The translations under genes and the position numbers were made by a program. Below the pieces are notes generated by a model. That model was not told where the DNA came from. It saw only the letters and a program-made list of their open reading frames with translations, and searched no databases. Positions 33,354-33,514 of a DNA stretch of 34,205 nucleotides are shown piece after piece (the stretch's first letter is position 1; every line of letters starts with the position of its first letter). The stretch is taken from the IMG/VR virus record IMGVR_UViG_2579778753_000004. The stretch is one strand, 5' to 3'. Source of the stretch: a virus (taxonomy: Duplodnaviria > Heunggongvirae > Uroviricota > Caudoviricetes).

Positions 33354-33443
33354 TATCTGCAATCAGGCTGGTGCGAGTTCTGTTTTTTTCGGGCCGGTCT
33401 GATTTTCACATACTGTAAGGTTATTGCATATTCCATCCAGTCT

Positions 33444-33514
33444 CTTCCCATGTTGACCCAGTACTTCCCATAATTATCTCACTTATCCCCTGTCATTTAT
33501 CTCAAGTCTAATCA
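33444..33514. repeat. Prophage right terminus with subterminal direct repeats (putative transposase-binding sites)
   Basis: CTTCCCAT at 33444 and 33464 (20-bp period); TTATCTC at 33475 and 33498 (23-bp period); element ends ...AATCA at 33514. Confidence 0.55.

Follow-up and report, generated by a model that had tools for sequence, protein, structure and literature searches.

A probable Mor-side terminus of a BcepMu-type transposable prophage in maeB, with abutting 23-bp repeats and a 10-bp-phased GGGA array

Positions 33354-33514 of the DNA analyzed here (one stretch of 34,205 nt, hereafter the window) constitute, with a probability of about 0.8, one terminus, the Mor-side ('early') one, of a BcepMu-type transposable prophage of 34 kb that is inserted in codon 231 of maeB. 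This end is an ordinary representative of a known phage group, with near-identical copies in many sequenced E. coli genomes. The sole lead of wider interest at this otherwise ordinary end is an array of GGGA units in 10-bp phase that lies just inward of the terminal repeats.

The element and its junction with maeB

The late genes occupy the minus strand, from position 1 to about 23.4 kb, and the early operon runs on the plus strand from 25.5 kb to 33353, encoding an rve transposase, an AAA_22/ExeA ATPase, GemA and, last, Mor. This gene order is the same as in BcepMu, with an early operon that closes with gemA-mor and is read towards the end, and divergent late genes. A DNA adenine methylase gene (23609-24403) stands alone on the plus strand between the divergent late and early blocks.

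20477-21025, minus strand: small terminase gene (DUF3486, Mu gp27 type; DUF3486 annotation in the prophage of E. coli G5), candidate reader of the GGGA array
26967-28736, plus strand: DDE (rve) transposase gene, 589 aa (Pfam rve, E = 2.3 × 10−7)
28747-29913, plus strand: AAA+ (AAA_22/ExeA) ATPase gene, presumed transposition partner, in the position that MuB has in Mu (Pfam AAA_22, E = 3.4 × 10−20)
32934-33353, plus strand: mor, the final early-operon gene, read towards the phage end (Pfam Mor, E = 1.3 × 10−42; the RefSeq start of the G5 copy is the equivalent of 32964)
33515-34205, minus strand: 5' part of maeB, codons 1-230, severed by the insertion (100% identical to E. coli maeB)

The transposase shares 93-100% identity with its counterparts in Klebsiella phage KP12 and Escherichia phages Phi06_2974 B and PhiKM; it is 68% identical to BcepMu gp09 over 98% of the length (68-69% to BcepMu and phiE255; gp09 is annotated as 'Tn552/IS1604 rve transposase'), 57% identical to B3 TnpA, and about 26% identical to IS481-family transposases, which are distant plasmid homologues. 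PhiKM, a close relative, is filed under Bcepmuvirus. Among Pfam domains, the transposase matched rve only and none of the Mu-specific ones. Its assignment as a MuA homologue was ruled out, given that no similarity to MuA was detectable (BLASTP E = 3.1; probability 0.1 for a profile of 47 relatives against MuA); there was no MuA chain among its PDB matches and no close solved structure by sequence, and the likeness of the ATPase to MuB is confined to the Walker A region (E = 0.23). The element is a BcepMu-type transposable prophage, Mu-like in its working and outside the MuA family. The original prediction of a 'Mu-type end' thus holds for the end of a transposable prophage with a terminal CA, but not for the family, the transposase being rve and IS481-like and the target duplication 6 bp long.

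The record of PhiKM (PQ738613.1), labeled a 'partial genome', is permuted and mis-joined, with its true ends unannotated and only the Mor-side end present. At positions 20200-20577 of this locus (L187), a truncated tail-fibre gene is fused to a host-like stretch of about 330 bp that bears the annotation of an ABC transporter permease, and the Mor-side end follows at 20577.

At the junction, the phage DNA ends in ...AATCA with 33514 as its last base, the terminal sequence TCAAGTCTAATCA being followed by host GCTCACGGCC (on the plus strand, ...CATTTATCTCAAGTCTAATCA up to 33514, then GCTCACGGCCCTGATAG...). Intact maeB of E. coli E2863 reads ...CCATGTTTG|GCTCACGGCC, and base 33514 is A in the window vs. 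G in the intact host gene; the window matches intact maeB only from 33515, and therefore host homology begins exactly there. The maeB match is unbroken from 33515 onward and maeB-like sequence does not run on into the phage side, which places the boundary at 33514|33515, in agreement with the earlier claim that phage sequence stops at AATCA directly against maeB. Homology to prophages at gadC, rumB, dsdX, ulaF/yjfY, irp2 and other E. coli loci likewise ends at 33514. The insertion point lies inside the coding sequence, and the prophage inactivates maeB, the gene for NADP-dependent malic enzyme. This insertion was absent from all complete E. coli genomes in the collection searched.

The window starts inside an invertible tail-fibre segment, with the far end of the element not included. 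Positions 1759-33514, however, are 99.3% identical to the G5 prophage (34,343 bp, starting with TGATGCGCC... and ending in ...AATCA), and the match stops at the same last base. Inward from the tip, both ends of the G5 prophage carry TGAT at 1-4, GATAAATG at 14-21 and GTGAGATAA at 33-41, so that each has two GATAA cores 23 bp apart at equal tip distances (GATA at 14-17 and 37-40). The termini of the element are TG...CA, with CA at 33513-33514 in the window and, in the G5 prophage, TG at the opposite end; TG...CA termini are characteristic of BcepMu-like rve elements (PMC2628397). Target duplications of 6 bp were observed in four independent insertions of close relatives, and these, together with the empty maeB site, predict the duplication made by the insertion in maeB.

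CGAAAC: target duplication, host site yjfY/ulaF
CGTTGC: target duplication, host site gadC
CCTGAG: target duplication, host site irp2
TTCACC: target duplication, E. coli JCH8249 contig
33515-33520, strand not assigned: GCTCAC, predicted right-hand copy of the 6-bp duplication of this insertion

The left copy of GCTCAC and the insertion's own left junction fall outside the window, and the predicted left junction (CATGTTTGGCTCAC|TGATGCGCC, i.e. ...CATGTTTGGCTCAC|TGATGCGCCGCGCGATAAATG) was not found among metagenome contigs. From the sequence of this end, TG, inverted repeats and a short target duplication had been anticipated for the opposite one, and all three are present in the G5 prophage. 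Among 62 distinct insertion flanks, there is almost no consensus. Target choice appears nearly random with a weak bias only, whereby G or C is preferred and T is rare at the outermost duplicated base, and G is favored two bases from the tip.

Most prophage borders are made by site-specific integrases, and a junction of this kind could be read as an attR instead of a transposon end. Such a reading is barely credible here: the element has no integrase gene but encodes a DDE transposase and an ATPase, the 62 flanks differ, with almost nothing in common, the 6-bp duplications differ in sequence from site to site, and the insertion is within a coding sequence.

Positions 1-1758 of the window contain a tail-fibre region that is rearranged relative to G5, with 1-110 and 944-1188 matching G5 in reverse. 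This rearrangement fits a Gin-type invertible segment, the invertase gene being just outside the window.

Terminal 23-bp repeats

33492-33514, minus strand: site 1, the outer of the two 23-bp terminal repeats, with its core GAGATAAAT at 33495-33503 and terminal TCA; probably a transposase site, from conservation
33469-33491, minus strand: site 2, the inner of the two repeats (23 bp), with its core GAGATAATT at 33472-33480; probably bound by the transposase, from conservation

The original prediction described a TTATCTC pair with a 23-bp period. This pair is real, although the exact repeat is an 8-mer and not a 7-mer (TTATCTCA, at 33474-33481 and 33497-33504, spacing 23 bp); TTATCTC is the reverse complement of the GAGATAA cores and marks the core conserved in each of two terminal repeats that abut. 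This core was not found a third time, and each end has two abutting 23-bp units. Within the last 71 bp of the phage DNA, four 7-mers recur compared to a mean of 0.34 in 5000 dinucleotide-preserving shuffles, with a fraction of 0.0086 of the shuffles reaching the observed count.

We compared 60 loci encoding relatives of the transposase, from Enterobacterales, Burkholderiales, Neisseriales and others. The strict pattern TGA-N10-GATA-N19-GATA matched once each in 32 of these loci, always downstream of the transposase gene and on the expected strand, compared to about 0.54 matches expected by chance in 1.13 Mb; a relaxed pattern recovered additional ends among these loci, and the strict pattern had no match in Ralstonia phage YO107_2. 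Twenty-two non-redundant ends with mor no more than 1.5 kb away were, on this criterion independent of the GGGA array, classed as Mor-side. Their consensus is TGA..gGa.gTGAGATAAAT...gtGAGATAAaT; it shows no variation at positions 1-3 (TGA), 14-17 and 37-40, and about 0 bits at the bases between. A 14-base end pattern applied to viral contigs yielded mostly chance matches, with only about 25 of 120 resembling real ends, and was rejected as a search tool.

The repeats are just 8 nt each and their excess within the window is modest, as the shuffle fraction indicates, which would be compatible with functionless chance matches in AT-rich non-coding DNA. However, the motifs occur at fixed tip distances in the 22 non-redundant relatives with almost no information between them, and the cores recur at the other end at equal distances, in BcepMu and B3 as well, making a chance origin very improbable. 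The TTATCTCA pair is, from sequence conservation, probably the core of two abutting terminal repeats that would serve as transposase sites. Very probably, the transposase recognizes both abutting 23-bp repeats of an end and would thereby pair the two ends; cleavage and joining would follow at the 3' CA (presumably 33513-33514) with a 6-bp stagger. Such an arrangement is reported for the ends of Tn552 and has been proposed for BcepMu and phiE255.

In practice, a search for TGA-N10-GATA-N19-GATA combined with a duplication of 6 bp pinpoints where BcepMu-type prophages end. Such prophages are common in E. coli and many other proteobacteria, and the annotated records examined list no end features.

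Comparison with known systems places this end closest to those of BcepMu and phiE255, which share the TG...CA termini and have mor as the last gene towards this end. In both phages, 23-bp imperfect direct repeats are present at both ends (PMC2920897). The two ends of BcepMu show TGA and GATA at 14-17 and 37-40 from the tip, within GA(G/C)GATA-cored repeats 23 bp apart, the GATA at 37-40 being common to both ends of the E. coli element and of BcepMu. The BcepMu cores are GAGATATTT/GCGATATTT vs. GAGATAAAT/GAGATAATT in the enterobacterial lineage represented here, and BcepMu carries an acyltransferase gene at the far end, whereas the E. coli element carries a Gin-type invertase and the invertible tail-fibre segment. 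The Mor-side end of B3 (Beetrevirus, Pseudomonas) also has TGA and two cores (GAGAAAT and GCGATAAAG), but the first core contains GAAA where the others have GATA, the far end begins with TGT, and the tail module is not of the P2-like contractile type encoded here. The far end of B3 carries GCAAAAGAATTTCA, close to TGCAAAAGAATTACA of the E. coli element.

By its core, the transposase falls in the Tn552/IS481 branch. Tn552 reportedly has two directly repeated 23-bp transposase sites at its ends and makes 6-7 bp duplications, a layout that the putative transposase sites and the 6-bp duplication seen here would match. The differences are that Tn552 is a small transposon, whereas the present element is a 34-kb phage without a resolvase or res system, whose end additionally has an array, a dyad and a probable terminator.

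In Mu, the target duplication is 5 bp and each end has three 22-bp MuA sites, with L1 set apart from L2 and L3. Like Mu, the element studied here is a transposable phage that has TG...CA ends and (putative) subterminal transposase sites, inserts at random and duplicates a short target sequence, and its Mor, GemA, head and packaging genes are homologous to those of Mu. It differs from Mu by a duplication that is one of 6 bp, by two abutting 23-bp sites per end in place of three 22-bp sites with an L1-L2 gap, by an early operon that is read towards this end and not away from it as in Mu, and by a transposase and an ATPase without detectable similarity to MuA or MuB.

As a separate observation, the right end of Mu (L273; TGAAGCGGCGCACGAAAAA...CACGATAAATGCG) resembles the BcepMu-type far ends (L001 10195-10240 and L004; TGAAGCGCGGCGCGATATTT; TGATGCGCCGCGCGATAAATGCG), with GATAAATG about 36 bp from the tip even though the transposases lack detectable similarity. 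This likeness could be coincidence, convergence or the trace of an undetected shared DNA-binding domain.

Probable terminator hairpin and dyad

33362-33406, plus strand: hairpin, then TTTT (33403-33406), which together probably form an intrinsic terminator for the early operon (fold, inverted repeat, relatives)
33414-33428, minus strand: dyad TGCAATAACCTTACA (TGCAA-N5-TTACA), 87-101 bp from the tip (exact match; conserved in relatives)

Directly after mor, the sequence can form a hairpin of 11 + 4 bp (stems 33362-33372/33393-33403 and 33374-33377/33388-33391), which in the fold of 33340-33430 has −27.7 kcal/mol (z = −3.2) and is followed by UUUU(C), a U-tract of four U only. In relatives with unrelated sequences, a hairpin occurs at the same place just after mor, and several of them (e.g. 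L012, L014, L027, L029, L072 and L171) have clear U-runs after it. A consensus terminator scan returned no canonical terminator, and there was no Rfam family match in 33200-33650. The hairpin at 33362-33403 with its UUUU likely terminates the early operon; early transcription would then stop before reading into the phage end and, beyond it, maeB. A T7 run after mor had been proposed to terminate the early transcript, and a terminator at this position is indeed likely; however, the T7 run (33383-33389) is real but lies within the hairpin loop, and the U-tract would be TTTT at 33403-33406.

The dyad is conserved among relatives as TG(C/A)AA-N5-TT(G/T)CA, with half-sites that covary, TGCAA occurring with TTGCA and TGAAA with TTTCA. 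The G5 prophage has a further copy at its far end, 69-83 bp from the tip (L001 10263-10277), which overlaps the stop codon of the invertase gene, and the far end of B3 has a close match. The covariation of the half-sites across relatives suggests that the dyad may be bound by a dimeric, phage-encoded protein. An IHF site was considered and rejected because the half-sites change together from phage to phage and the spacer has 5 nt instead of 4. A copy of the dyad with one mismatch (TGCAAAAGGCTTACG) at 23614-23628, at the start of the methylase gene, is within chance expectation.

The GGGA array and its possible readers

33432-33471, minus strand: four-unit 10-bp array, candidate pac signal (phasing statistics and comparison of ends)
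33466-33469, minus strand: unit 1, GGGA
33456-33459, minus strand: unit 2, GGGT
33446-33449, minus strand: unit 3, GGGA
33436-33439, minus strand: unit 4, GGAT

The original prediction also noted a second repeat pair with a 20-bp period. It is a real exact 8-mer repeat (CTTCCCAT, at 33444-33451 and 33464-33471, spacing 20 bp) but probably falls outside the set of transposase sites, comprising units 1 and 3, i.e. half, of a 4 × 10-bp array, hence the 20-bp period. The four units, read inward on the minus strand, are ATGGGAAG, CTGGGTCA, ATGGGAAG and CTGGATGG, at 46, 56, 66 and 76 bp from the tip. Each relative examined carries such an array at its Mor-side end. Of the 33 successive GGGA spacings in the 22 non-redundant Mor-side ends, 31 equal 10 or 20 bp exactly, compared to a mean of 0.15 in shuffles, none of which (0 of 2000) attained 31; the GGGA motif never occurs on the opposite strand in the array stretch.

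The array is not confined to BcepMu-type phages. B3 has four GGGA/GGAC units at 46, 56, 66 and 76 in its Mor-side end, and the left end of Mu likewise has 10-bp-phased GGGA/GGAT units, at 33, 44, 53 and 63, in the same orientation as in the window. Comparable runs are present in three phages with MuA-type transposases:

Vibrio phage 1.142.O: MuA identity 48%, GGGA motif at 40/50/60/70
Vibrio phage ZX4290: MuA identity 49%, similar GGGA run from about 38 bp inside the end
Pasteurella phage AFS-2018a: MuA identity 46.5%, GGGA motif at 9/29/49 in the record

The left end of D3112 has no clean GGGA array. In BcepMu, B3, Mu and the E. coli element, the far end showed no array (for Mu, no GGGA motif in the first 100 bp of the right end), and this end-specificity rests on a small sample of far ends, where the E. 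coli element contributes three near-identical enterobacterial variants, the yield of a baseplate-gene search of viral contigs. In the remainder of the window, promoters included, the array and the dyad have no significant further copies, and no link to promoters emerged. The presence of the array at the ends of phages with two transposase types that lack a detectable relationship indicates that it travels with shared modules other than the transposase.

In the original prediction, both repeat pairs were taken as stacked transposase sites, which would give four or more sites at this end, and of this the TTATCTC pair stands. The ends of Mu and Tn7 do carry several transposase sites, asymmetric in number; the array directly abuts site 2 within the end region, and at Mor-side ends GGGGA, a G-rich patch, is also found between the two sites, 25-29 bp from the tip. 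However, the GGGA units have no sequence in common with the GAGATAAAT cores and their period is 10 bp vs. 23 bp, the array was unseen at the far ends examined, and Mu and the Vibrio Mu-like phages, whose MuA is without detectable similarity to the transposase encoded here, have this array at their left ends. It is therefore unlikely that the CTTCCCAT pair belongs to the transposase sites, as part of an array common to phages with an unrelated transposase.

A more plausible reader, at close to even odds, is the small terminase: the 40 bp inward of the terminal repeats, with four units in exact 10-bp phase, may be a pac signal recognized by the Mu-type (gp27/DUF3486) protein and not by the transposase. 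The small terminase encoded at 20477-21025 is 23% identical to Mu gp27 over the full length (E = 6 × 10−10), and the array is common to Mu and the Vibrio Mu-like phages, with which the small terminase is shared and the transposase is not; this pattern argues for a pac signal, although Mor and GemA are also common to the Mu-type and BcepMu-type phages, such that sharing does not single out the terminase. Mu pac is said to have been mapped by deletion to about bp 32-58 of the left end; the GGGA array of Mu would lie in this region. To our knowledge, the Mu pac site is known from deletion mapping only. Packaging is reported to start at the Mor-side ('left') end, with pac there, in BcepMu and phiE255 (PMC2920897), and Mu is packaged from the left end (PMC2837660). 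If the array is a pac signal read by the terminase, headful packaging of the present element would start at the Mor-side end.

The array, alone or together with the dyad, might instead bind another protein and shape the end for transpososome assembly, with no role in packaging; the candidates would be a phage protein common to Mu (the Mor/C family or GemA) or a host nucleoid protein. Spacing by one helical turn puts the units on the same face of the DNA and would suit cooperative binding or bending, and Mor and GemA are present in both phage groups. HU binds the L1-L2 spacer in Mu, in which the GGGA array of Mu lies. Against such a role, the hosts span beta- to gamma-proteobacteria, neither array nor dyad has significant further copies in the window, and restriction to the reported packaging-start end suits pac better; in addition, a putative end in one IMG/VR contig (L117), whose family membership is unconfirmed, has GGC(A/C) in all four slots and would suggest a phage-specific reader. 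Overall, we consider this alternative improbable.

Should the array prove to be pac, it would be conserved at the packaging-start end despite unrelated transposases (in Mu, the Vibrio and Pasteurella Mu-like phages, and BcepMu-like and B3-like phages), and it would be the head genes, not the transposase, with which the signal for packaging travels. Transposition and packaging signals would then be separable modules at one phage end, and the pac site would gain a sequence definition.

In a relative on the E. coli JCH8249 contig NZ_CP132021.1, an extra gene between mor and the end (L277 37263-37592) encodes a 109-aa protein whose first 52 residues are 54% identical to the small-terminase N-terminus (E = 1 × 10−16). 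A second copy of this terminase domain next to the Mor-side end speaks for the pac reading. This contig is filed as a circular 'plasmid' of 40.5 kb and consists of a 35.5-kb prophage (2222-37731, duplication TTCACC) and 5 kb of other DNA.

The L117 contig (IMG/VR 2895169357_000003) has its putative, Mor-side-like end at 10825, with TGGCAC, CGGCCC, TGGCAT and TGGCCC in the four 10-bp slots in place of GGGA units. These slots look like a coordinated motif change, which would be useful for a test of covariation between the array and the terminase.
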